A stretch of DNA of 64,000 nt from Candidatus Scatomorpha merdigallinarum. Its GTDB lineage: Bacteria > Bacillota > Clostridia > Oscillospirales > Oscillospiraceae. The notes under the pieces are model-generated. The model was given only the letters and a program-made list of their open reading frames with translations. It did not search any database and was not told the DNA's origin. The stretch's first letter is position 1. Each line of letters begins with the position of its first letter. Of this stretch, positions 42,900 to 55,541 are shown piece by piece. The stretch lies in assembly GCA_018710885.1 (NCBI GenBank), contig DVJA01000058.1:7922-71921 (forward strand). The letters run 5' to 3'. The position numbers and the translations under genes were made by a program.

Positions 42900-43877
42900 T
42901 CATGTGCAGGAGGCAAACACTTCGTCGAATATGGCTCCCGGCATGTAGGCGCAGACTCTCACTGCGCTGCCGCCGTACATGACGCAGCCGTTTTCAAAGA
43001 GTCGCACGGGAACGGTCGTGCCGTCTGCCAACTCGAAGTAGAGATGCACCTCGGCGTACTCATAGTCGAAAATGTCGCCGTTTTCGCTCCACGCGCTCCA
43101 CTCCTGCATAGGCGAGACCATGAGCAGGGAGACAAAGGCTTCCAGGCTCTCCGGGTCGAGCTCGTGGCGGTTATCTATATTCTCCTCCCAGTCAGCGTCG
43201 AGGATGTAGTACGCGCCCACGTAGTTTTCGACATGCAGACAGGTTTCAAATAGGTCAGCGCCGCTGTAGAGCGTCATGTCGCTCAGACAGTCGTAGAACT
43301 CTATCAGCCCGTCCGGTCCATCCATGCACAGACGGAAGTTGGTGTCGTAGCCTTTGACACTGTACACGTCGCCGCCGATGCTGGACGCGCCCTCGACGTA
43401 CTCGTCCGCGCCGGACCACTCGTCTATATCTCCCTTGACCGTACAGACATATCCTTCCCTCAACGAAGGGTCGGCGTACTGCCCGGTCTGGACATACATG
43501 CGGCCGTTGTATATGAAAAAGGCCATCATATCCGCTGCAACCCCCGGCTCCGGCGCCTCCGGCATTGGGTCTGGCGAGATGTACACACTGTCCCAAGGAG
43601 GTGCCGGCACCATCACACCGTTGTCCGGCGACACAGACCCTGGTGCAGCCGATGTGTCAACCGCCGGGTTATCGCCGGCCACCGGCTTTATACCCTTCCA
43701 CGGCTGGGCAATACCCAGCACCAGTGCTGTGCAGGCTGCCATGACCGCCACAGCGCCGATAATGCGCCGGCGGCGTGTTTTGCGCTTGCTGCCAGATGTT
43801 GCAGATTCGAGTCTTGCATCCTCTATAGCTTCGTCCGATATGCCGCCGATTGCTTTGAATACATCCCAGTTCGTCAT
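42900..43877 (-). CDS. single-pass membrane protein, putative anti-sigma factor (by position only)
   Basis: ATGA overlap with the ECF sigma stop. About 35-aa cytoplasmic N-terminus, RRRR-TM (IIGAVAVMAACTALVLGIA), about 265-aa extracytoplasmic domain with no motif I recognise. No HxxxCxxC ZAS motif. Confidence 0.4.
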   Translation of the reverse strand: MTNWDVFKAIGGISDEAIEDARLESATSGSKRKTRRRRIIGAVAVMAACTALVLGIAQPWKGIKPVAGDNPAVDTSAAPGSVSPDNGVMVPAPPWDSVYISPDPMPEAPEPGVAADMMAFFIYNGRMYVQTGQYADPSLREGYVCTVKGDIDEWSGADEYVEGASSIGGDVYSVKGYDTNFRLCMDGPDGLIEFYDCLSDMTLYSGADLFETCLHVENYVGAYYILDADWEENIDNRHELDPESLEAFVSLLMVSPMQEWSAWSENGDIFDYEYAEVHLYFELADGTTVPVRLFENGCVMYGGSAVRVCAYMPGAIFDEVFASCT

Positions 43878-44431
43878 ATTAGCTCCTCGCTTTCGAGATA
43901 AGCGCGCAATTTTCTGCGCGTCCTGTGGAGCAGCGAGCGCACGGCTTGTTCTGTCATCCCGTTTTGCCTGGCTATATCCGGCACGGTATCACAGTCGAAA
44001 CAGCGCTGCACGAACACACGCCTTGTCCTGGCATCCTGCTCAAGCACGAACGAATCAACAGCCCGTGCCAGTTCATCGGCGTCCAGGCGCTCCCCCACGC
44101 TTCCAGGCGCCGGTACGCACTCCGAGAGTTCCTCCAGGACTGCCTCCACCTCCCCGCAGCCGCGTTTGGCGGCAGTGTTGTGTTCGAGCCTACCCAGGGC
44201 AGTGTTTCTTGCGCAGCGCGCCAGCCAGGCTCCGAGCGATCTCGGCTTTTCCGGCGGTATGGCTTTCCAGGCGGCCAGGTACACATCCGCTTCGCACTCC
44301 TCTGCGTCGCGTACGGATCCGGTTATGTTCAGCGCTACCCGGCGCAGATATGAGCCGTATCTGGCCCGGCACTCGTCCAGGGCACGCTCTGAACGCCGGT
44401 TGAAAAGCTCGATGATTTCCCTGTCGTCCAT
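43874..44431 (-). CDS. ECF-type RNA polymerase sigma-70 factor
   Basis: Start refined to MDDREIIELF (AAGGAG 7 nt upstream). Region 2 (YLAAWKAI) and region 4 HTH (IPDIARQNGMTEQAVRSLLHRTRRKL). Confidence 0.85.
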   Translation of the reverse strand: MDDREIIELFNRRSERALDECRARYGSYLRRVALNITGSVRDAEECEADVYLAAWKAIPPEKPRSLGAWLARCARNTALGRLEHNTAAKRGCGEVEAVLEELSECVPAPGSVGERLDADELARAVDSFVLEQDARTRRVFVQRCFDCDTVPDIARQNGMTEQAVRSLLHRTRRKLRAYLESEELI

Positions 44432-44676
44432 GAGCACGCTCCTTTCCTCTTGAGGTCCCTCATCTATAAAGTAAGGTTTTTTATCCATGTGTTGCGATCA
44501 AAGCTTCAACTTCAGAATCTTTTTTAACATCTGAGGCGCGCCAGGCACGCATTAAGTTTGCTGCTGAGATTTGCTTCCGGTTGCGTAACCTCAGTGTAAT
44601 TCTGTTACCGGGTCAAAAGCTGTCACAAGGACATATACTGTTCTCGGGGCATCGCCCCAGAGGGAGGAACACACAA

Positions 44677-46059
44677 ATGGGTGTTACTAATTCCAACAAG
44701 CTTATAAATCTCAACAGTATAGACTGTGACGGATCGCTGCGTGTAACGCTTGCGCTCACCGCAGCGCCCGATATTATAACTAATCCAACCGATATCGTCC
44801 TCGTGCTCGACCGCTCCGGCAGCATGACGGGCACGCCGCTTTCCAACATGAAAACCGGCGCCAAGACCTTTATCGACATCATCGCCGAGTCCACCGGTGG
44901 CACCGCCAGCGGGCAGATAGGCTCCGGCAGCCGTATAGGCATAGTCAGTTTTGCCGATACGGCAATGGACAATACGCAGCTCATCACTTCCGTCGATGCG
45001 CTTAAAAACGCCGTTGACGCCCTGGTAGCGCTCGGCAACACCAATCACGCCGACGCCTTCACCAAGGCGCTCGGTCTATTTGACCCCAACTCAAGCAACG
45101 CAAGAGTAATTGTAATGTTCACCGACGGTAAGACCACGGCCGGAGGCCCGCCTGCTCCGATTGCCGCGCAGGCTAAAGCCCAGGGCGTCATAATCTACTG
45201 CATCGGCCTAATCGGCTCTGACGGCATTGACGTCCCCACACTTGAAGAGTGGGCCAGCGACCCGTCAGCCACGCACGTGGCCGTCACCCCGGATTCTGCC
45301 GAGCTTGAAGAGCTGTTCAAAGAACTGGCTGAAAACATCTCCAAAACCGGTGCCACCAACATCGTGATAGACGAAAAGGTGGCCTCCGACTTCGTGATAA
45401 CCAGTATTGTTACTCCCGACCGTGGCACTGCCACCATGACGGACAGCCGCACGCTGCGCTGGACGATACCTGAACTCGGCGTATCTGCCAGCGAAAGCGC
45501 GCTGCTTGAGTTCTATATCCGGCACACGTCTCAGAACCCCGGCACGAAACTGGTAAACGAGTCAATCACCTACTCTGACAGCGAGGGCAATGTTGTGGTC
45601 TTCCCCGCTCCCACTGTCGAAGTGAACTGCGGCATTGTCGTGAACCCGGAAGAGTGCCCTGTGCCAGTTGACTTGGCGGTCTCCGGCTGTTCCGACTCTG
45701 TGCTCGTGGACCTTGGCAATGTCGAACTAGAATCGCTCGGACGCATCATTCAAGCCGATGTGACAATTAAGAACGTCTGCCCCGGCAAGCGCGTGGCCCT
45801 GGCTGCAATACTGACTGAGGTTGACGGTGAGGGCATGGAATACCAGCGCGGCATGAAAACTGTAGCCATCCCTGCGCACACCCAGCCCTCCTGCCGTGAC
45901 GTGCTGGTCAGGTGCATCAAATTCGTGGTCCCGGAAAGCCTGGCTGAAAACGGCGAGCCTGTCGGCGCCATGTGCGGCGACCGCCAGTTTAAGATGCGTT
46001 TTATCGCCCACTATATCGACACCGATTACCGCTGCTGCGAGGCAGAAGTAACCCTGTAA
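44677..46059 (+). CDS. von Willebrand factor A (MIDAS) domain protein with beta-rich middle domain and Cys-rich C-terminus; no signal peptide
   Basis: Start refined to ATG 44677 (AGGGAGG at 44661-44667). MIDAS DRSGSMTG, GNTN, MFTDGK. About 10 Cys in the last 150 aa, ending YRCCEAEVTL. Confidence 0.8.
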   Translation: MGVTNSNKLINLNSIDCDGSLRVTLALTAAPDIITNPTDIVLVLDRSGSMTGTPLSNMKTGAKTFIDIIAESTGGTASGQIGSGSRIGIVSFADTAMDNTQLITSVDALKNAVDALVALGNTNHADAFTKALGLFDPNSSNARVIVMFTDGKTTAGGPPAPIAAQAKAQGVIIYCIGLIGSDGIDVPTLEEWASDPSATHVAVTPDSAELEELFKELAENISKTGATNIVIDEKVASDFVITSIVTPDRGTATMTDSRTLRWTIPELGVSASESALLEFYIRHTSQNPGTKLVNESITYSDSEGNVVVFPAPTVEVNCGIVVNPEECPVPVDLAVSGCSDSVLVDLGNVELESLGRIIQADVTIKNVCPGKRVALAAILTEVDGEGMEYQRGMKTVAIPAHTQPSCRDVLVRCIKFVVPESLAENGEPVGAMCGDRQFKMRFIAHYIDTDYRCCEAEVTL

Positions 46060-46079: not shown

Positions 46080-46103
46080 GAGGCCCGCCGTACGGCGGGC
46101 CTC
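46080..46103. terminator. shared hairpin between the convergent VWA gene and EF-Tu-like gene
   Basis: gaggcccgccg / cggcgggcctc, GC-rich 11-bp inverted repeat. Poor U-tracts on both sides. Confidence 0.55.
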
Positions 46104-46122: not shown

Positions 46123-46647
46123 TTACCACGGAAGATTTGCCACTATGTCCTTTAGAAGCTCTTCCAGGGCCGAGATGCCGGCTTCAATCTGCCCATAGAC
46201 GGCGGCACGTGCGGAGCCGGCTATAAATTTGAGGTTATCGTATGGCACATCGCTATTATAGAGCTGACGGCAGGTATCAATCTGCACCAGCTCAATAAGT
46301 TCGTCGTCGTAGTCGATGAGGTCGCATTTGTTGAAAAATACACCCTTAAACTTCAAATCCTTGCCCGGCAGGAGCTCGTCGAGGTCCATCGGCCCGTCGT
46401 CGGCCGCCACGACCAGATACCACATGTCTGCTTCCGGAACGGCAACGTCAAAATCTGAGAAGTGTGTCTCCAGTATGTAGAGTTCTATGCCCTTCATCCG
46501 GATGCAGCAGCCGCCCGGCACCGCGCCGCCCGCGCCACCTCTGGCGGCGAACTCGGACAGCAGGTACAGAATTTCAGACATACCCACACCCTCTGTGCCG
46601 AGAAGTCTGATAATTGCCCGCCTTGATGCATTGATACCAGCACTCAT
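46123..46647 (-). CDS. EF-Tu G-domain-like protein with degenerate P-loop and switch II (putative pseudo-GTPase)
   Basis: By-eye alignment to EF-Tu domain I: LVVAADDGPM, VFFNKCDLIDYDDELIELVQ, FIAGSARAA. The P-loop equivalent is GTEGVGMS (Lys to Met). No DxxGH. Start taken at the second ATG (GGAG 8 nt upstream). Confidence 0.6.
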   Translation of the reverse strand: MSAGINASRRAIIRLLGTEGVGMSEILYLLSEFAARGGAGGAVPGGCCIRMKGIELYILETHFSDFDVAVPEADMWYLVVAADDGPMDLDELLPGKDLKFKGVFFNKCDLIDYDDELIELVQIDTCRQLYNSDVPYDNLKFIAGSARAAVYGQIEAGISALEELLKDIVANLPW

Positions 46648-46665
46648 GTTCATTACTCCTGTCCT

Positions 46666-47130
46666 TTAGTTTTTGCCGTGCGCGGCGAAGTACTCCTTGA
46701 GCACTTCCAGCGCCGCTTCACGGCATGCGCCTAGGGTTACAGAGATGTTTGCGCCTGAACTTTCAAATACAATACGGCTGCACTCACTGCCCTGTACTCC
46801 GAGCAGCGCGCAGAGGTCAATATCGCTCGCCCCGTAGACGAGCCGCCCGAGTTTGGCCCAGACCATAGCGCCGGAACACATGAAACAGGGCTCGCAGCTC
46901 GTATAGAGCGTGTACTCGCTCAAATCGGTAATGCCTGTCTCACGGGTAAAGCGGCGTATGAGGCCGATTTCCGCATGCTCGGTGTGGTCATGAGCCGTAT
47001 ATATCTGGTTTTCATTGCGGCAAACTATTTTGCCGTCTTTCACCAGCACGGCGCCGAAGGGCTCGTTGCCGTGGAGAACAGCTTCGCGCGAGAGGCGCAC
47101 CGCCTCGCGCATGAAAACTTCATCGCTCAA
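46666..47130 (-). CDS. CDA-fold nucleoside/nucleotide deaminase (TadA/GuaD-like)
   Basis: 154 aa. Zinc motifs HAEIGLI and CEPCFMCSGA. Confidence 0.8.
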   Translation of the reverse strand: MSDEVFMREAVRLSREAVLHGNEPFGAVLVKDGKIVCRNENQIYTAHDHTEHAEIGLIRRFTRETGITDLSEYTLYTSCEPCFMCSGAMVWAKLGRLVYGASDIDLCALLGVQGSECSRIVFESSGANISVTLGACREAALEVLKEYFAAHGKN

Positions 47131-47786
47131 CGGAACACCCCCATGTCTGCGTCGTAGATCTCGACCCGCCTGAACTTGGCAAAGTCCGGCTTGAGCTCCG
47201 GACTAAGCTGCTCCAGCGCATGTATTAAGAGGTCCGGGTTTACTGTGGGCTCCTGCGCGGATATTACGCACTTGATGCGGAGCCCGTCCTGCGTGGGTTC
47301 GCACTCAAAATCCCTTACGTTTCCGGCGAGCTCCAACACTCCCTCGCCCCTCTTAGTGCGGCGTTTGACCGGTATGCTCTCACGCCTGAAAAAGGCCAGC
47401 AGCGGCTGGACTATATTCTCTCCGCTGACATGGTCATAGTCGAAACGCCCCTCAATGCGCAGCCACTTGATACCGCTCGCCTTGCGCTCGGGCTCGTAGC
47501 ACTCCAGGAAGCGTATACCCTCGGGCGAGGTGGAGTTGAGCTTTTCCGGCAGGGCCGCTATATCTATATCCCGCTTCACGCGGAAGTCCATGAGCTCGCA
47601 CAGGCTCTCTGTCCCCACTGAAAGGGGCAGGCAGATAGATATGAGCGCGTGCGGGTTAAAACCCTCGGAATATCTGAGCGGGGTCTCGGCGCGCAGGAAG
47701 ATGCGCTGCACCACACGCATGAGGTCGAGGTGGCTTATGTACGCGGCCTTGCCGGTCTTTTCAAAACGCAAACGCAGTTTATCCAT
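47127..47786 (-). CDS. TIGR03936-family (DUF2344) radical SAM-associated protein
   Basis: 219 aa. MDKLRLRFEKTGKAAYISHLDLMRV..R..LP...S.GFNPH is characteristic. Overlaps the upstream radical SAM gene by 8 nt. Confidence 0.75.
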   Translation of the reverse strand: MDKLRLRFEKTGKAAYISHLDLMRVVQRIFLRAETPLRYSEGFNPHALISICLPLSVGTESLCELMDFRVKRDIDIAALPEKLNSTSPEGIRFLECYEPERKASGIKWLRIEGRFDYDHVSGENIVQPLLAFFRRESIPVKRRTKRGEGVLELAGNVRDFECEPTQDGLRIKCVISAQEPTVNPDLLIHALEQLSPELKPDFAKFRRVEIYDADMGVFR

Positions 47787-49617
47787 CGCACTTCACCCCC
47801 TTGGGAAGTAGGCTCTGCGCCCCGCAGGCAGAGCAGGCCACGCGGCAGTCGGGGCTGAGCTCGGCGGCATACGCCCTGTGCTTTTCGCGCAGCAGCAGGC
47901 TTGTCCTCACACCCATGTCTATGCGGCACCAAGGTAGGACCTCGTCCTCTGAGCGCTCGCGCGTGGCGTAGAAGTCCGGGTCAACGCCACATTCGTCAAA
48001 GGCATCCATCCAACGCTTGAAGTTGAAGTAGTCACTCCATGCCTCCATGCGTGCGCCGCGCCGCCAGGCGGCCTCTATCGCGTCACCGACACGCCTGTCA
48101 CCGCGGCTGAGCACGGCTTCTATAAAGCTCGTATCCGGGTCATGCCAGTTATATGTGACATTCTTGGCGGTAATGGAGTCGCGTAGCAGGTTTACGCGGC
48201 GCTTATACTCGCTGCGCGTAACCTGTGCCTCCCACTGGAACGGGCTGTGCGGCTTTGGCACGAAGCAGCTTGTGGACACGGTTATGCGCACGCCGCGCTG
48301 CTTGTTGGGCGAGCTCTCGCGCCAGACGTGGAGCACCTGGGCGGCGAGGTCGGCTATGCCCACGACGTCCTCGTCCGTCTCCGTGGGCAGGCCCAGCATG
48401 AAATAGAGCTTAATGCCGTTCCAGCCACCCTCAAAGGCTATGCGGCAGGTATTCAGCAGGTCATCCTCGGTGACGTTCTTGTTTATGACGTCGCGCAGAC
48501 GCTGTGTTCCCGCTTCAGGCGCGAAGGTCAGGCCGCCGCGGCGCACCTTTTGCAGGCGGCTCATGAGTTCCATGGAGAAGTTGTCAGCTCTCAGGCTGGG
48601 TAGAGAGAGCGAGACGTTGCGGGGCTCGCACCAGTCAAGGAGTCCGTCACAGGCCTCCGGCAAGTGCCGGTAGTCGCTGCTGGATAGGCTCAGCAGCGTC
48701 GCCTCCTGCGAGCCCGTGTTCCTGATAGACTCTATGCCCTGGCGTATGACAGTCTCCGGCTTCTTCGCGCGTATGGGGCGGTACACGTACCCCGCCTGGC
48801 AGAAGCGGCAGCCGCGCACGCAGCCTCGGAAGAGCTCCACATTCACGCGGTCGTGGACTATCTCCGTGCTGGGTACGATGGGGTTTGTGGGGTAATACAC
48901 GCTGTCCAGGTCGGATATAATGCGCTTCGTGACCTTTTCCGGCGCGCCGGGCAGGCAGCGCATCTCGGCGAGGGTGCCGTCTGCGTTGTAGACCGGCTCG
49001 TAGAGGCTTGGCACGTAGACGCCCTGTATCTTTGCGGCTTCGAGCAGAAAGTCGTGCTTGCTCCAGCCCTCGTCGCGGGCCCTCTGGAACAGGCGCAAGA
49101 CCTCAACGTCCACTTCCTCGCCTTCGCCGAGGACCATCAGGTCCATGAACGGCGCCATCGGCTCGGGGTTGCAGCAGCTTGTGCCCCCCGCGAACACCAG
49201 CGGCGTCAGGCCGGGTCTGTCCGCGCTTCTGAGCGGGATTCCCGCCATGTCGAGCATGTCCAGCACGGTACAGTAGGCCATTTCGTAGCCTATGGAGAAG
49301 CCAAGCACGTCGAACTCGCTCACCGGGTCTCCGCTTTCAAGCGCATATAGGAGCATTTTGTTCTCGCGCATGGCCTCGGCCATGTCGCCCCAGGGCGCAA
49401 ACACACGTTCGCACCAGATGTCCGGCTCGTTGTTGATAACTCCGTAGAGTATGCGCATGCCGAGGTTGGACATGCCTATTTCGTACACGTCCGGGAAGCA
49501 GAAGGCCATGCGCAGCTTGACTTCACTCTTGTCCTTGATTATTTCATTGAGCTCACCGCCTGTGTATCTGGCGGGCTTTTGCACATTAGGGAGTATTCTT
49601 TCTAAGCGTTTGTCCAT
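47779..49617 (-). CDS. TIGR03960-family B12-binding-domain radical SAM protein
   Basis: Start refined to MDKRLERIL. KPARYTGGELN N-terminus. Radical SAM cluster RGCVRGCRFCQAG. Confidence 0.85.
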   Translation of the reverse strand: MDKRLERILPNVQKPARYTGGELNEIIKDKSEVKLRMAFCFPDVYEIGMSNLGMRILYGVINNEPDIWCERVFAPWGDMAEAMRENKMLLYALESGDPVSEFDVLGFSIGYEMAYCTVLDMLDMAGIPLRSADRPGLTPLVFAGGTSCCNPEPMAPFMDLMVLGEGEEVDVEVLRLFQRARDEGWSKHDFLLEAAKIQGVYVPSLYEPVYNADGTLAEMRCLPGAPEKVTKRIISDLDSVYYPTNPIVPSTEIVHDRVNVELFRGCVRGCRFCQAGYVYRPIRAKKPETVIRQGIESIRNTGSQEATLLSLSSSDYRHLPEACDGLLDWCEPRNVSLSLPSLRADNFSMELMSRLQKVRRGGLTFAPEAGTQRLRDVINKNVTEDDLLNTCRIAFEGGWNGIKLYFMLGLPTETDEDVVGIADLAAQVLHVWRESSPNKQRGVRITVSTSCFVPKPHSPFQWEAQVTRSEYKRRVNLLRDSITAKNVTYNWHDPDTSFIEAVLSRGDRRVGDAIEAAWRRGARMEAWSDYFNFKRWMDAFDECGVDPDFYATRERSEDEVLPWCRIDMGVRTSLLLREKHRAYAAELSPDCRVACSACGAQSLLPKGVKCDG

Positions 49618-49671
49618 GTAATGACCCCGTTTCAAAAGTTACGCGGTCAGTATATACTATCCTGCCCAAAT

Positions 49672-50229
49672 TTACAAGTGCGCTTGTTGTACCATGAGCG
49701 CTCCACCGGCTATTAAAAGCGCGATTCCTCCCCCGCTGGCAGCCAGTATGGCGCCAAAGAGCAGCACCAGTGCAGCCGTCACCAGCGAGCAGAGCAGCGT
49801 TGCCCGGCGGCCAACGGCACACTCGAGCGCCCGGCCTCCGTCCAGCGGCAACGCCGGAAGCAGGTTGAAACCGCTGAGCACGAGACTCATACCGGCTGAC
49901 AGCAAAAGCATATCCAGTCCAATGAAGGAACCCAAGCCCGCCGCAAGGGCGGCCCATATGAGCCCCGCTGCCGGTCCTGAAAGGGCGCACACCAGCTCGG
50001 ACAGGCTGCCCGCCTGGGCGTCGCGCTCTATCACAGCACCCGTTATGTTCGCTGTCAGCGATTTTACTCTCCCGCCCGTCAGCCTGATGGCAACGAGGTG
50101 GCCCAGCTCGTGCGTCACTGCAGCCAGCAGCAGTGCAGCCAGCTCGTCCGTGTCCAGCAAGAAGTAGAGCGCCGCGAGCAGCACGGCGCCCCCGGCGCTT
50201 ATTTTAACTTTGAATCTTCTGTGCATCAT
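49672..50229 (-). CDS. short M50 site-2 protease (SpoIVFB-like, no CBS domain)
   Basis: Start refined to MMHRRFKV, overlapping the upstream M23 stop. HELGH and NLLPALPLDGGR motifs. About 185 aa. Confidence 0.7.
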   Translation of the reverse strand: MMHRRFKVKISAGGAVLLAALYFLLDTDELAALLLAAVTHELGHLVAIRLTGGRVKSLTANITGAVIERDAQAGSLSELVCALSGPAAGLIWAALAAGLGSFIGLDMLLLSAGMSLVLSGFNLLPALPLDGGRALECAVGRRATLLCSLVTAALVLLFGAILAASGGGIALLIAGGALMVQQAHL

Positions 50230-51110
50230 GAGAGGTAAAACTCTGGGTTGTAGTAAACCCCGTCGCAGGTGAGTTCCAGGTGCAGGTGCGGCCCGGTGAC
50301 ATTGCCCGTGGCGCCGACCAGACCTATGCACTCCCCGGCCGTCACGGTGTCCCCTCCGGTCACATACACGGCAGAGCAGTGCGCATAAAGCGTGCGCCAG
50401 CCTCCGGCGTGCTGGACTATTATATAGTTGCCAAAGCCAGCGTCCCAGCCGACCATCCCCACAGTCCCGTCCGCAAAAGCCAGAATCTGCGTGCCGGTCC
50501 AGGCCGCAAAATCAGTGCCATAGTGAAAGAGCACCTCGTTTCGCAGCGGATGCATCCTATAGCCGAAGCCACTGCTCGTCATATCACTGACCGGGCTCAC
50601 ATAGTCAAAGGGCAGCTCAGGATAACTGTAGCTCACATTCGACGGCACCGCGTAGTCAGAGAACTGGGCCTGGGCCTCCAAAAAAGACGTGACAGCCTCC
50701 GGCACCGGCTCTTCGGTCGGCTCCGGAGTCGGTTCAGGCGTCGGCTCTGGTGTGGGCTCAGGCGGCGTTGGCTCGGCCGTGTTCTCCGGCTCAGACTTCG
50801 GCAGCAGGGCGGCCTGTTCCTCCAGCAAGTCGTTAATCGTGGTCGGGGAGTACTGTACGGGCTTGGTGTCACCCTCGTCATACCGTCCGGTGAGACGCAG
50901 GAACGCCTCCCTCACCTCTTCGTCGCCTGCCAGAGTTTCGCCGAGGTCCTGGAACACCGCCATATAGTCCGCATCGCTGGATATCACCTCGCGTAGCTGT
51001 GCCCGCGCCTGCTCCGTCTGCTCCGGGAACAGCAGCTTGATGGCAGTCAGCAATATGAACACTGCGGCGGCACAGAGAACTTTTAAGTTTTTCGTATGTT
51101 CGGCCTTCAT
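50226..51110 (-). CDS. membrane-anchored M23/LytM metallopeptidase (SpoIVFA position)
   Basis: Start refined to ATG 51110 (MKAEHTKNLKVL + TM). The track ORF extension runs across the tRNA-Pro gene. HxxxD (HYGTD) and HxH (HLHLE) intact. (EPTP)n linker. Confidence 0.75.
   Translation of the reverse strand: MKAEHTKNLKVLCAAAVFILLTAIKLLFPEQTEQARAQLREVISSDADYMAVFQDLGETLAGDEEVREAFLRLTGRYDEGDTKPVQYSPTTINDLLEEQAALLPKSEPENTAEPTPPEPTPEPTPEPTPEPTEEPVPEAVTSFLEAQAQFSDYAVPSNVSYSYPELPFDYVSPVSDMTSSGFGYRMHPLRNEVLFHYGTDFAAWTGTQILAFADGTVGMVGWDAGFGNYIIVQHAGGWRTLYAHCSAVYVTGGDTVTAGECIGLVGATGNVTGPHLHLELTCDGVYYNPEFYLS
50700..50780 (-). repeat. in-frame tandem 12-nt repeats encoding (EPTP)n linker of the M23 peptidase
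   Basis: Peptide AEPTPPEPTPEPTPEPTPEPTEEPVPE. The DNA shows reiterated ggctc(a/c/t)gg(c/t/a)g(t/g) units. Confidence 0.7.
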
Positions 51111-51177
51111 ATCAAGAGTATATTTTGCCCGGGACGGGCTTATACATACGGCCGCACGAATCTTTTTAAATAACTGC

Positions 51178-51206
51178 TTGACAAGCGCCCTCTGAGCCCT
51201 TATAAT
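51178..51206 (+). promoter_or_regulatory. consensus sigma-A promoter of tRNA-Pro
   Basis: TTGACA (51178-51183), 17-nt spacer, TATAAT (51201-51206), 13 nt before the tRNA 5' end. Confidence 0.8.
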
Positions 51207-51219
51207 GATAAGGCCGTTT

Positions 51220-51295
51220 CGGGGTGTAGCGCAGATGGTAGCGCGCATGGTTCGGGACCATGAGGCCGCGAGTTCAAGTCTCGCCACTCCGACCA
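51220..51295 (+). tRNA. tRNA-Pro (anticodon CGG)
   Basis: Manual cloverleaf: acceptor CGGGGTG/CACTCCG, D stem GCGC/GCGC, anticodon stem CATGG/CCATG with loop TTCGGGA, T stem GCGAG/CTCGC with loop TTCAAGT, encoded CCA. 76 nt. Confidence 0.9.
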
Positions 51296-51297
51296 CA

Positions 51298-51335
51298 TCC
51301 GTCAAAGTCAAATGACTTTGACGGATTTTTATTTT
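51298..51335 (+). terminator. intrinsic terminator of tRNA-Pro
   Basis: ccgtcaaagtc / gactttgacgg stem followed by ATTTTTATTTT. Confidence 0.8.
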
Positions 51336-51374
51336 CAAGGCAAATGGTCAGGCGCAGAGACATATAAATCACCA

Positions 51375-52967: not shown

Positions 52968-55541
52968 TCATACATTTGCGGATTTGAAGCCGCACTCGGC
53001 TATATTGTTAACCGGATCCAGCCAGAAACGCAGACCCTGCGGTTCTGTAACACGGAACATTTTGGCCAGTTCATCCATTGACGGACAATACTCTTCGAAT
53101 TTGTCCGGCAGGCCATTCAGAAGGTCGCGGTTATATATCACCGTGCGCTTGTCGTTCCAGACAGCGCAATAGAAAATATCAGCTTCGACGAGGTCCTGGA
53201 ACATATGGCTGCCATAGCTGAGTTCAGGCATATACCCTGCCCGGTCATCGCTGACTTCGCACACACCCGCAAATCCGCTTATATCTGCAAAGCTCACCGG
53301 CACACCGAGCTCCGGCGAACTGGTACCCAACCTGCCCGGAGCGAGCAGCAGCACGCGCTTCCCGCTGTCCTTGAGTTTGCGGTTTATGAGGCCGACGGCC
53401 TTGGCCACGAGCGGCTTTTTAGCATACGGGTACTCGTAGTACTCCTTGGCGTCTATCTCAATCACCACGTCAATGTCCACGACTGTGGCCGGACCCATTG
53501 CGGAGTTTTTCAGGTAGAAGAGTACGTCCTCCCGTCTGAGCTCCGGCAGCTTCACCTTGCCGCCGGGCTGGCCTATGTAAAGCGGGCGGCACTGGAGCAG
53601 GTTAATTACAAAATCTCCCGTCTCGTCGGTGTTTACGGCGTACTCTATGTCCACGGGAGTACCGTAGACGTTTTCCAGCGTCTTTAGAAGAGACCGCATG
53701 ATTTTAGGGAAGGGCGTGCGCTCCAGGAAGCCCTGGCAGCTCACGTACCAGACGTCTTCGCGGTAACCGGCGTCGCGCAGCGCGGCCTCGGCGTCGGTGT
53801 CGTGCTCATACATCAGAGACCAGAACCACACCGGCAGGCACTGGCGCACAGTCTCGGCGTCTACGCTGCGGAAGGCCTGCCTGTCCCGGTCTATGACGTC
53901 TATGCTGTGCTGTGAGAACTTGTGCCGCTCCGCGCTGCTCGGATGCGAACGGGCCGTCGGCCTGTCCAGGCTCACCAGGCGCGGATAGTCGTCCTCCGTG
54001 CGGTCCACAGCCTTGGTGCCCAGACCTACAACCAGGCGCAGCATACCGGCTTCAGGGTCGGAGTCGGGGCTGGGCCGGTAGAGGCTGCGGCTGAAGCCCA
54101 CGCCGGCCGCGCCCGGCAGATAGTACGGGCCCGCCCAGGAGCCGGACACGCGCTGCACGAGTATACTCATCTGCTCGTCGAGTTTCTCCAGCCCGCGCTG
54201 GACACGGTACTCGAGAGCCGAAGGGTCCATGGTGCTGGCATAGACCGTGCGCACGGCCTGCTCGAACTGCTTCAGCCGCTCATCCAGGGAACCTGAGTTC
54301 ACGCAAAATACACTCTCGTACTTTCCGGCGAAGGCGTTTCCGAAGCCGTCCTCGAGGAAGCTCGAGGAACGGACAATGATCGGCGTCTGACCGTAATAAC
54401 TTAGCATGCTCTTGAACTGCTCGCGTATCTGCTCAGAGAATTCCCCGTGCAGCAGCGCCTCCCGCAGTGCGGGCGCCTTCGTGAAGAAGCCCTCGCGCGT
54501 GCGCTGCTCCACCCTCAGCTTCCAGCAGTTGTTGTTGACTATATAAGTGTAGTAGACGTCTGAACCTATGAAAAACGAGTCATGCGGCTCGGAGTGGTCG
54601 CGGAACTCTGGCAGGCACCCGTCAGCTATTTTTCTGGCCAGGAGCATGCCGCAGGCCTTGCCGCCTATGGAGCCGGAGCCTATCATGCGGTCCCGCACCA
54701 TGAAGTAGTCCTTTGGCTCAAACATCTGCCGGATCAGCTTCTGAACGTTCGGGTCCCGGCTCATCATGCTCTCAAGTATCTTGCGCTCCGTCTCGTCGTG
54801 GAACTTGCCCTGGCCGAACTCCAACTTTGCCTGTGCAAAAAATCGGTCGTGACTGTCATAGTTCTGGTCCTGCGAGTGAGATGATATGTTGTCTAATAGC
54901 CGGTAATACCGGCTGAGCGCCACGCCGCCGTCCAGCGGTTTAAACGGCCCGCCGTGCTGGCTCACATGCGGTATGTAGAGGTTTATGCCCTCCCTGTCCT
55001 GGGCCTTGAGCGTGTGAATATATACGCTGCTGTCCGAAGTGTATACGTCAATGAGCACCTGGGTGGTGTCGCGTATTCTCGCTATGACGTCATAGGAGTG
55101 GCGTGAACGTATTAGCGGGAAATACGCCACCGTCTCGAGCTCATAGAGGTACGGACACGTCACGCGGAAGAAGTTGCCCATCATCTGGTCAGTGTACCAG
55201 GCAGATTGCAGCTCGCTCAGACAGTCAAAGACATAGAACGTACCCGGACCCTCTGTCGTTATGCGGTCGTAGATGGCCACCGTGAAGGGCTCAAAGCCCA
55301 TGTCCGGGTCAAACTCATAGATTTTCAGCCCCGGCTGCGCCGACAGCAAACTCTCGTGGCGCGTAAAGTGTATATAGACGGTATTTCTCCCGTCGGCTAT
55401 CGCCTGTTCTGCAAACGGGCGGGCAAACAGCCGGAACTCATCAAGGTTTGAAACCTGCCAGACGACGTTGTCGCCTATCCGTATGTTGTCGAACACACTG
55501 TCCGCGCCGGGATATCCACTGGGCACCCTGTCAAACAGCAT
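52968..55541 (-). CDS. PEP/pyruvate-binding (PPDK_N ATP-grasp) domain protein with degenerate KaiC/RecA-like N-domain
   Basis: 857 aa. GGKACGMLLA and IVRSSSFLEDGFGNAFAGKYES are typical of the PPDK/PpsA nucleotide-binding domain. The N-terminal RVPSGYPGADSVF resembles a KaiC-type domain without a Walker A. Confidence 0.75.
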   Translation of the reverse strand: MLFDRVPSGYPGADSVFDNIRIGDNVVWQVSNLDEFRLFARPFAEQAIADGRNTVYIHFTRHESLLSAQPGLKIYEFDPDMGFEPFTVAIYDRITTEGPGTFYVFDCLSELQSAWYTDQMMGNFFRVTCPYLYELETVAYFPLIRSRHSYDVIARIRDTTQVLIDVYTSDSSVYIHTLKAQDREGINLYIPHVSQHGGPFKPLDGGVALSRYYRLLDNISSHSQDQNYDSHDRFFAQAKLEFGQGKFHDETERKILESMMSRDPNVQKLIRQMFEPKDYFMVRDRMIGSGSIGGKACGMLLARKIADGCLPEFRDHSEPHDSFFIGSDVYYTYIVNNNCWKLRVEQRTREGFFTKAPALREALLHGEFSEQIREQFKSMLSYYGQTPIIVRSSSFLEDGFGNAFAGKYESVFCVNSGSLDERLKQFEQAVRTVYASTMDPSALEYRVQRGLEKLDEQMSILVQRVSGSWAGPYYLPGAAGVGFSRSLYRPSPDSDPEAGMLRLVVGLGTKAVDRTEDDYPRLVSLDRPTARSHPSSAERHKFSQHSIDVIDRDRQAFRSVDAETVRQCLPVWFWSLMYEHDTDAEAALRDAGYREDVWYVSCQGFLERTPFPKIMRSLLKTLENVYGTPVDIEYAVNTDETGDFVINLLQCRPLYIGQPGGKVKLPELRREDVLFYLKNSAMGPATVVDIDVVIEIDAKEYYEYPYAKKPLVAKAVGLINRKLKDSGKRVLLLAPGRLGTSSPELGVPVSFADISGFAGVCEVSDDRAGYMPELSYGSHMFQDLVEADIFYCAVWNDKRTVIYNRDLLNGLPDKFEEYCPSMDELAKMFRVTEPQGLRFWLDPVNNIAECGFKSANV

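Follow-up and report, generated by a model that had tools for sequence, protein, structure and literature searches.

A probable operon with a conserved radical SAM core and a variable 3′ end in Candidatus Scatomorpha, carrying a stand-alone EF-Tu-like G domain

We analyzed a stretch of Candidatus Scatomorpha merdigallinarum DNA of 64,000 nucleotides (the window), in which four co-directional genes are located on the minus strand. The first gene (47779 to 49617) encodes a TIGR03960-family radical SAM protein (rSAM) of 612 aa with Radical_SAM_N2 and Radical_SAM domains. Its reading frame (47779-49635) extends up to a TTG at 49635, but the likely start is the ATG at 49617. It is followed by the TIGR03936/DUF2344 radical SAM-associated gene (47127 to 47786; 219 aa), a gene for a CDA-fold zinc deaminase (46666 to 47130; 154 aa), and a gene for a stand-alone protein derived from the G domain of EF-Tu, designated as EFTuL (46123 to 46653; 176 aa, shortened to 174 aa if the ATG at 46647 is the start).

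The genes are closely packed. An overlap of 8 nt (ATGGATAA; 47779-47786) joins rSAM to TIGR03936, whose start lies over the rSAM stop codon. TIGR03936 and the deaminase gene overlap by 4 nt (TTGA; 47127-47130) if the deaminase starts at TTG, and the in-frame ATG at 47112, an alternative start, would leave a gap of 14 nt to TIGR03936. On two near-identical metagenome contigs, the gene was called with the overlapping start. The deaminase and EFTuL genes are separated by 12 nt, or by 18 nt when counted from the second EFTuL ATG at 46647, for which a GGAG sequence is better spaced than for the first. A sequence-only reading of this DNA had described four co-directional genes with these overlaps and this gap, and the minus-strand open reading frames confirmed it.

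A G+C-rich hairpin (46080-46103) is located between EFTuL and the VWA gene, which is encoded on the plus strand and converges with it. The hairpin contains 10 pairs, nine of them G-C, with an energy of − 27.1 kcal/mol (z = − 4.2 against shuffled sequences); on the minus strand it has only a weak U-tract. Scanning the same strand for hairpins revealed no strong terminator-like site inside the four-gene block, where a single 5-pair site was detected; the strong hairpin thus follows the last gene only, as had been noted. It is probably the terminator of the operon. Just upstream of the rSAM start, a sigma-70-like promoter match (49649-49677, minus strand; TTGTAA, 17 nt, TATACT) was found by consensus alone. 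Two further co-directional minus-strand genes precede rSAM, encoding an M50 peptidase (49672-50331) and an M23 peptidase (50226-51338), and in most loci of the genus whose contig reaches upstream, both are conserved on the left of the rSAM pair. The junctions and the single strong hairpin bore out the operon-like packing of the four genes.

The first two genes constitute the core of this block. TIGR03960 and TIGR03936 form a widespread pair and are often fused, and we know of no substrate assigned to them. The rSAM protein scored 899 bits against the TIGR03960 model (B12-binding radical SAM protein; cut-off 462.3), matching model positions 1-601 of 605; its N-terminal domain matched Radical_SAM_N2 of Pfam, and the cysteines of the radical SAM CxxxCxxC motif (C266, C270, and C273) are invariant across 17 sequences. 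The TIGR03936 protein scored 169 bits (cut-off 71.9). Its predicted model (pLDDT 87.7) resembles the fold of the pseudouridine synthases TruA, Pus1, and Pus3 in Foldseek searches (1vs3_A, E 2.8e-6; 1dj0_A, TMq 0.64; TMq range 0.5-0.64). TIGR03936 was found in 29 of the 34 Ca. Scatomorpha genomes, and the rSAM gene adjoins it in every locus of the genus whose contig reaches that far. The sequence-only reading had taken these genes as a conserved pair of unknown substrate, and the scores far above the cut-offs, the 8-nt overlap, and the distribution in the genus are in agreement with this. The family scores and motifs showed that its naming of the genes was correct.

The gene for RNase E/G is the usual and often-cited neighbour of the pair. 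No such gene lies beside the pair at this locus, and a search with PF10150 (RNase E/G) found no match elsewhere in this genome (G000, 83% complete) or in 60 other genomes of the order. The pair is therefore kept in an order in which RNase E/G was not found in the 61 genomes searched, which loosens its often-cited link with this gene. The locus otherwise shares the features of the known pair, namely scores above the curated cut-offs, translational coupling, CxxxCxxC, and a partner with a TruA-like fold. It differs in that an RNase E/G gene does not adjoin the pair and that lineage-specific genes come next in this lineage. A literature search on DUF2344, TIGR03960, and TIGR03936 returned incidental mentions only.

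The core is formed by a TIGR03960 radical SAM enzyme and its TIGR03936 partner, the two genes being translationally coupled. Most likely, the pair modifies an RNA by radical chemistry, with the TIGR03936 partner holding the RNA, as suggested by the predicted fold, at modest TM-scores (0.5-0.64), and by the family context. Few radical SAM systems that lack a known substrate are as widespread as this pair, and a conserved additional partner would therefore be a valuable lead.

EFTuL matched EF-Tu models only in part: the scores were 30-38 bits where the cut-offs exceed 449, and the match spanned EF-Tu residues about 100-199. Its score against TIGR00485 was 30.6 bits (cut-off 522), placing it outside elongation factor Tu as defined by that model. 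The predicted model (pLDDT 86) matched the whole G domain of EF-Tu with a TMq of about 0.74, and the identity with EF-Tu was 24-26% over the full G domain, although similarity was detectable at the sequence level only over EF-Tu residues about 97-195. EFTuL shares with EF-Tu domain I this fold, the NKxD and GSA motifs, and helix D. It differs from EF-Tu in consisting of domain I alone, the tRNA-binding domains II and III being absent; in the deletion of switch II (DCPGH, 12 residues); in a switch I shorter by about 14 residues; and in a P-loop lysine that is not conserved. The P-loop reads GTEGVGMS in the window, where Lys is replaced by Met; this position is K, M, I, or Q across the family, and most copies have lost the lysine. 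Invariant across the family are xKxD (NKCD in the window), the glycine of GSA, and two glycines of the P-loop, and helix D is conserved. Among the canonical translational GTPase motifs, G4 and G5 are present, G1 is degenerate, and G3 is deleted. Lacking switch II and, in this copy, the P-loop lysine, EFTuL cannot work as a canonical GTPase switch. The description of this protein as a translation-factor mimic was right as to the EF-Tu-derived G domain and overstated for a protein that lacks domains II and III and switch II.

The helix-D face of EF-Tu binds EF-Ts and L7/L12. EFTuL would most likely be a protein-binding pseudo-GTPase that works through its retained helix-D face, a proposal that we regard as speculative. 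PseudoGTPases, reviewed for eukaryotic cases (e.g. PMC12490416, PMC5593906), retain the GTPase fold but no longer catalyse and serve as interaction modules. EFTuL resembles these proteins in its G-domain fold, degenerate G1, absent G3, and retained selection, and differs in being bacterial, derived from EF-Tu, and stand-alone, with about 175 residues. Our literature search on EF-Tu-like proteins, truncated EF-Tu, and pseudoGTPases found no description of a bacterial stand-alone EF-Tu G domain. EFTuL represents a small, undescribed family of free-standing EF-Tu G domains in which switch II has been lost and selection persists. Pseudo-GTPase or EF-Tu-decoy functions in gut Clostridia are candidate roles for its members.

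EFTuL is present in 10 of the 34 Ca. Scatomorpha genomes. In all nine that could be checked, it is located 3′ of TIGR03936 on the same strand at a distance of 14-60 nt; the tenth is cut by the contig end. The EFTuL proteins of nine species are 37-63% identical, except for two closer pairs at 83%. EFTuL evolves faster than any other gene around it; in most pairs, its dN is two to three times as high as for TIGR03936. Pairs whose dS is below about 1.3 gave dN/dS ratios of 0.17-0.32, and the ratio remained below 1 throughout; judged by these substitution rates, purifying selection maintains EFTuL. Nine of the ten species have an open frame, and the remaining copy (G002) contains an in-frame TAG.

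On a midpoint-rooted tree of the flanking genes themselves (rSAM and TIGR03936), the genomes with EFTuL form one clade, inside which two genomes without EFTuL (G043 and G048) are nested; L068 likewise lacks it. The tree indicates at least two losses in this clade. The order-wide sample contained EFTuL in one of 400 other genomes. Distant relatives were located away from the rSAM pair, either after guaA (L077 and G284) or beside, or fused to, Sel1 repeats. One subclade of Ca. Scatomorpha would have gained EFTuL, which was then inherited vertically and repeatedly lost. The linkage thus held in that EFTuL adjoins TIGR03936 in one subclade; it did not hold in some members of the subclade, which have lost the gene, or among the distant relatives, which are located elsewhere. 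The short-gap linkage in nine species fits a functional partnership as well as vertical descent.

EFTuL, but not the deaminase, could serve the rSAM/TIGR03936 enzyme of the Scatomorpha subclade as an accessory subunit or regulator specific to this lineage, for example as an adaptor directing it to a place where EF-Tu binds, such as the ribosomal stalk or EF-Ts. Its position directly after TIGR03936 with short gaps in nine divergent species, the purifying selection, and the retention of helix D and xKxD while the catalytic parts are gone are all consistent with this role. However, one insertion followed by descent can explain the linkage, members of the clade have lost EFTuL yet kept the pair, the distant homologues lie apart from the pair, and the wide distribution of the family indicates that the pair works without EFTuL in most bacteria. 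We consider such a role rather unlikely. Predicting a three-chain complex of rSAM, TIGR03936, and EFTuL residues 9-176, run without controls, gave a score of 0.00, which counts neither way.

A more specific form of this idea is that EFTuL is a new bacterial pseudo-GTPase, a mimic of EF-Tu domain I whose helix-D face for EF-Ts and L7/L12 couples the orphan radical SAM/TruA-like RNA-modifying enzyme to the translation machinery in the Scatomorpha subclade. This is a long shot; if it were true, the place of EFTuL in the operon would give a first functional hint of what the TIGR03960/TIGR03936 family acts on.

The patchy distribution, repeated loss, and fast evolution of EFTuL, its rarity in the order-wide sample, and the varied contexts of the family, with Sel1 repeats fused or adjacent in distant members, would also suit a decoy or guard in genetic conflict. 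Such a protein would soak up or sense EF-Tu-targeting toxins, phage proteins, or antibiotics, and would be located after TIGR03936 only incidentally. No defence or toxin gene adjoins EFTuL in any context examined, however, and with dN/dS below 1 throughout there is no sign of positive selection over the whole gene; we regard this explanation as improbable.

It is very improbable that EFTuL is a functionless, decaying remnant of a partial tuf duplication, as the loss of switch II and, in most copies, of the P-loop lysine, the one in-frame stop, and the several lineages without the gene might suggest, since the frame is open in nine of ten species at 37-63% identity, dN/dS is 0.17-0.3, neither xKxD nor the two P-loop glycines vary, and the model is confident (pLDDT 86). 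A tuf pseudogene was rejected on dN/dS and motif conservation.

The deaminase scored 76.3 bits against dCMP_cyt_deam_1 (PF00383; cut-off 25) and contains HAE and PCFMC, which fit the PCxxC pattern and assign it to the CDA superfamily. Its best match in the PDB was the guanine deaminase GuaD of B. subtilis (1wkq and 1tiy, E 4e-23), with TadA at E 1e-17. These results sustain its description as a zinc deaminase of the TadA/GuaD fold. It shares the CDA fold, HAE, PCxxC, and a similar size with both enzymes. The alignment with GuaD covers residues 2-106 only, so that the N-terminal 105 residues alone align and the C-terminal substrate-binding segment is outside it. In comparison with TadA, it scored 93.9 bits against NF008113, below the cut-off of 150. 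We rejected it as the TadA of this genome on this score and because a better candidate (134.7 bits) is located on another contig, C25.

At this site, the deaminase gene was found in the window and in two metagenome contigs of the same species (L069 and L070, with neighbours 95-98% identical) and nowhere else. It was absent from all nine related loci that keep TIGR03936 followed by EFTuL. Orthologues with 64-69% identity are present in three genomes of the genus (G004, G019, and G021), one of which, G004, is a single contig in which the orthologue comes after ftsH; a TIGR03936 query found no match in any of the three. The sequence-only reading had held that a linkage unique to this genome would make the association a chance adjacency, and the linkage of the deaminase fell on this point, being confined to contigs of the same species. 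The insertion is clean (4-nt overlap, 12-18-nt gap), has been retained in three independent samples of the species, and showed nothing distinctive when inspected for a duplication or GC signature. Such a clean, retained insertion may reflect co-option in the operon. The deaminase would be a GuaD/TadA-like nucleobase or nucleoside deaminase, inserted between TIGR03936 and EFTuL in this species only, and it probably just rides on the transcription of the operon.

The distribution of the genes bears directly on the proposal that all four proteins constitute one RNA- or translation-directed modification system, as the sequence-only reading had suggested. Tight packing with a single strong hairpin and no strong internal terminator-like site, the assignment of three of the four proteins to folds with links to RNA or translation, and the recurrence of the arrangement in two metagenome contigs of the same species speak for it. 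However, the four-gene order is limited to one species, the deaminase is missing from the nine related EFTuL loci and has orthologues in three genomes without a TIGR03936 match, 19 of the 29 genomes of the genus that carry the pair, close relatives among them, lack EFTuL, and relatives of EFTuL are found away from the pair. The four-protein model is largely refuted by this distribution, with the deaminase insertion confined to one species and the EFTuL linkage to one subclade, and we give it hardly any credence.

A census of 28 loci in the genus showed that the slot after TIGR03936 differs by lineage, being occupied by rplS-lepB-rbgA, a CAT-type acetyltransferase gene, moaA, a sigma factor gene, or nothing. 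The block would thus be one operon in which the core is conserved and the 3′ end is variable. We consider it fairly probable that the four genes are co-transcribed neighbours in such an operon and not a conserved four-component system; the function of both add-on genes is unproven. As neither extra gene here is a general partner of the pair, the effort that a four-component model would demand can be saved.

In the genome GCA_964261755, a 250-aa open reading frame comes after TIGR03936.

Four open reading frames run along the minus strand at 46123–49635 of the window, which comes from a Candidatus Scatomorpha (Oscillospiraceae) metagenome-assembled genome that is 83% complete. The first, which extends to 49635 and likely starts at the ATG at 49617, encodes a radical SAM protein of the TIGR03960 family (899 bits; cut-off, 462), and the second encodes its TIGR03936/DUF2344 partner (169 bits; cut-off, 71.9), whose start shares 8 nt with the radical SAM stop. 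The third encodes a CDA-fold deaminase of 154 residues with HAE and PCxxC, and overlaps the TIGR03936 gene by 4 nt, given a TTG start. The fourth (46123–46653), 12–18 nt past the deaminase, encodes an EF-Tu-like protein of 174–176 residues, designated EFTuL, whose sequence matches only residues ~ 97–199 of EF-Tu. A hairpin of 10 pairs (46080–46103; − 27.1 kcal/mol, z = − 4.2) follows the last gene, and the sole hairpin site on the coding strand within the block is weak, with 5 pairs. Thus, the packing and terminal hairpin described in the sequence-only reading were confirmed. Co-transcription of the four genes is very probable. M23 and M50 peptidase genes lie 5′ of the block in the same direction; a convergent VWA gene and then sigma factor, putative anti-sigma, and flavodoxin genes lie 3′.

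The same reading had proposed that the four genes form one RNA- or translation-directed modification module. They do form a tight block but are not a conserved four-component system, as the deaminase occurs there in one species only and EFTuL is linked to TIGR03936 in one subclade only. The part that is conserved is the radical SAM pair, already known as an orphan, and a conserved core plus independent add-ons is the explanation we consider fairly probable. The predicted TIGR03936 model (pLDDT 88) was most similar to the pseudouridine synthases TruA, Pus1, and Pus3; this fold and the family context suggest that the pair may modify RNA. The pair is usually described as a neighbor of RNase E/G. 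No PF10150 (RNase E/G) match turned up in this genome or in 60 other genomes of the order (37 of the 61 being of high quality), and the pair is kept nonetheless; therefore, it is independent of that neighbor.

Among 34 genomes of the genus, TIGR03936 was found in 29 and EFTuL in 10. EFTuL was located 14–60 nt 3′ of TIGR03936 in nine of these ten, the tenth being interrupted by a contig end. The EFTuL genomes formed one clade in the tree of the radical SAM and TIGR03936 proteins, and two genomes without EFTuL (G043 and G048) were nested within it. In a relative with an 84% identical TIGR03936, ~ 1.5 kb of non-coding, repeat-rich DNA stands in place of EFTuL (L068:4660–6140). A ~ 25-codon segment is present twice in the translation of this stretch, and the neighboring VWA gene is split over several frames.

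Other members of the genus carry, after TIGR03936, rplS-lepB-rbgA, a CAT-type acetyltransferase gene with moaA, only moaA, a YbaK-like gene in convergent orientation, a gene for a secreted protein, or an 871-aa ORF, which makes the 3′ end of the operon a variable site. The chloramphenicol-acetyltransferase-family gene (PF00302, E = 3e-67) between TIGR03936 and moaA in G015 (L040:345–1016), present at the same position in G001, G009, G041, and G014 of one subclade, is another cargo gene at this site. Genes identified by eye from translations as rplS (L19), lepB, and rbgA/ylqF-like follow the pair on L063, L065, L054, and L064 (G045, G047, G022, and G010). These loci come from deep-branching members of the genus and from G022, which also carries an rnhB-like gene. 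This looks like an older arrangement tied to ribosome biogenesis.

When 1.84 billion representatives were searched with a profile, about a dozen EFTuL family clusters emerged before the hits blended into ordinary EF-Tu, and a scan of 400 more genomes, sampled evenly across the order, yielded one true member (G284). These distant members do not adjoin the radical SAM pair. One type (G284/P0259) is located after guaA and P0258 after a Sel1-repeat gene, P0255 lies 830 nt beyond an unannotated gene, and in P0265 (L073:166–1752) the EFTuL domain is fused to a long N-terminal region, a coiled-coil-like stretch rich in charge, and a Sel1 repeat at the C-terminus. The two Sel1 contexts hint that the family has a partner of the Sel1 type. 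The link with TIGR03936 is thus confined to one subclade, and one insertion of EFTuL after TIGR03936 followed by descent is enough to explain it. A lineage-specific accessory of the core pair would also fit the linkage within the genus; with G043 and G048 lacking EFTuL and distant members located elsewhere, we regard this as rather unlikely.

The position directly after a Sel1-repeat gene was seen at L071:2–1324. The guaA (GMP synthase) context was seen at L090:4256–6678 (G284) and on L077, in a different genus of the same family. EFTuL of the window follows a guanine-deaminase-like gene, and guaA and the deaminase both act on guanine compounds, which may be a coincidence. P0264, a 548-aa protein of the representative library, contains an extra, degenerate G-domain-like region ahead of a G domain that bears GHGKT and NKCD, and an EF-Tu domain III match; it is an EF-Tu paralogue of a different kind.

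The predicted EFTuL model (pLDDT 86) matched the whole EF-Tu G domain (TMq ~ 0.74), whereas domains II and III are missing. Alignment with EF-Tu of related genomes revealed that switch I is shorter by ~ 14 residues, and that a 12-residue deletion takes out switch II, including the DCPGH motif. Both P-loop glycines are invariant but the lysine is not, being K in G011, G024, and several distant members, M in the window, and I or Q elsewhere; xKxD is invariant, GSA is conserved, and helix D is well conserved. Judged from these motifs, EFTuL cannot be a canonical GTPase switch. A decoy role for EFTuL is improbable. The frame is open in nine of ten species, with most pairs 37–63% identical, and dN/dS was 0.17–0.32 in the less saturated pairs; for most genome pairs, its dN was two- to threefold that measured for TIGR03936 between the two genomes. 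Despite its degenerate motifs, EFTuL is thus a real gene under selection, probably encoding a clade-restricted, EF-Tu-derived pseudo-GTPase; a decaying relic, to which the one in-frame TAG in G002 might point, is very improbable.

The deaminase was not found at the EFTuL-bearing loci of nine related species, which have the order M23-M50-radical SAM-TIGR03936-EFTuL, nor in relatives with 82–84% TIGR03936 identity. Two metagenome contigs with TIGR03936 95% and 98% identical to that of the window both keep TIGR03936-deaminase-EFTuL, so this order is fixed in the species. True orthologues (64–69% identity) are present in G004, G019, and G021, where a TIGR03936 query gave no match; in the single-contig genome G004, the gene follows ftsH. 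The expected co-occurrence of the deaminase with TIGR03960/TIGR03936 was therefore not borne out. The deaminase is a species-specific insertion at the TIGR03936/EFTuL junction and probably a recent passenger of the operon. That all four proteins work as one system is accordingly most improbable. The closest protein is B. subtilis guanine deaminase, with similarity over the first 105 residues only. The deaminase was rejected as the TadA of this genome (93.9 against a TadA cut-off of 150), for which another contig holds a stronger candidate.

The VWA-domain gene (44581–46059, plus strand) is divergent from a sigma-70-family gene and from the putative anti-sigma factor gene that overlaps it, which encodes 325 aa and has no Pfam match (42900–44488, minus strand). 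This trio is kept beside the operon across the EFTuL clade, and a CsxB family match is on record for the VWA protein of relatives. An 857-aa ORF at 52968–55541 (minus strand) has PPDK_N (pyruvate phosphate dikinase AMP/ATP-binding; residues 291–655) as its sole match, the remainder being unannotated.
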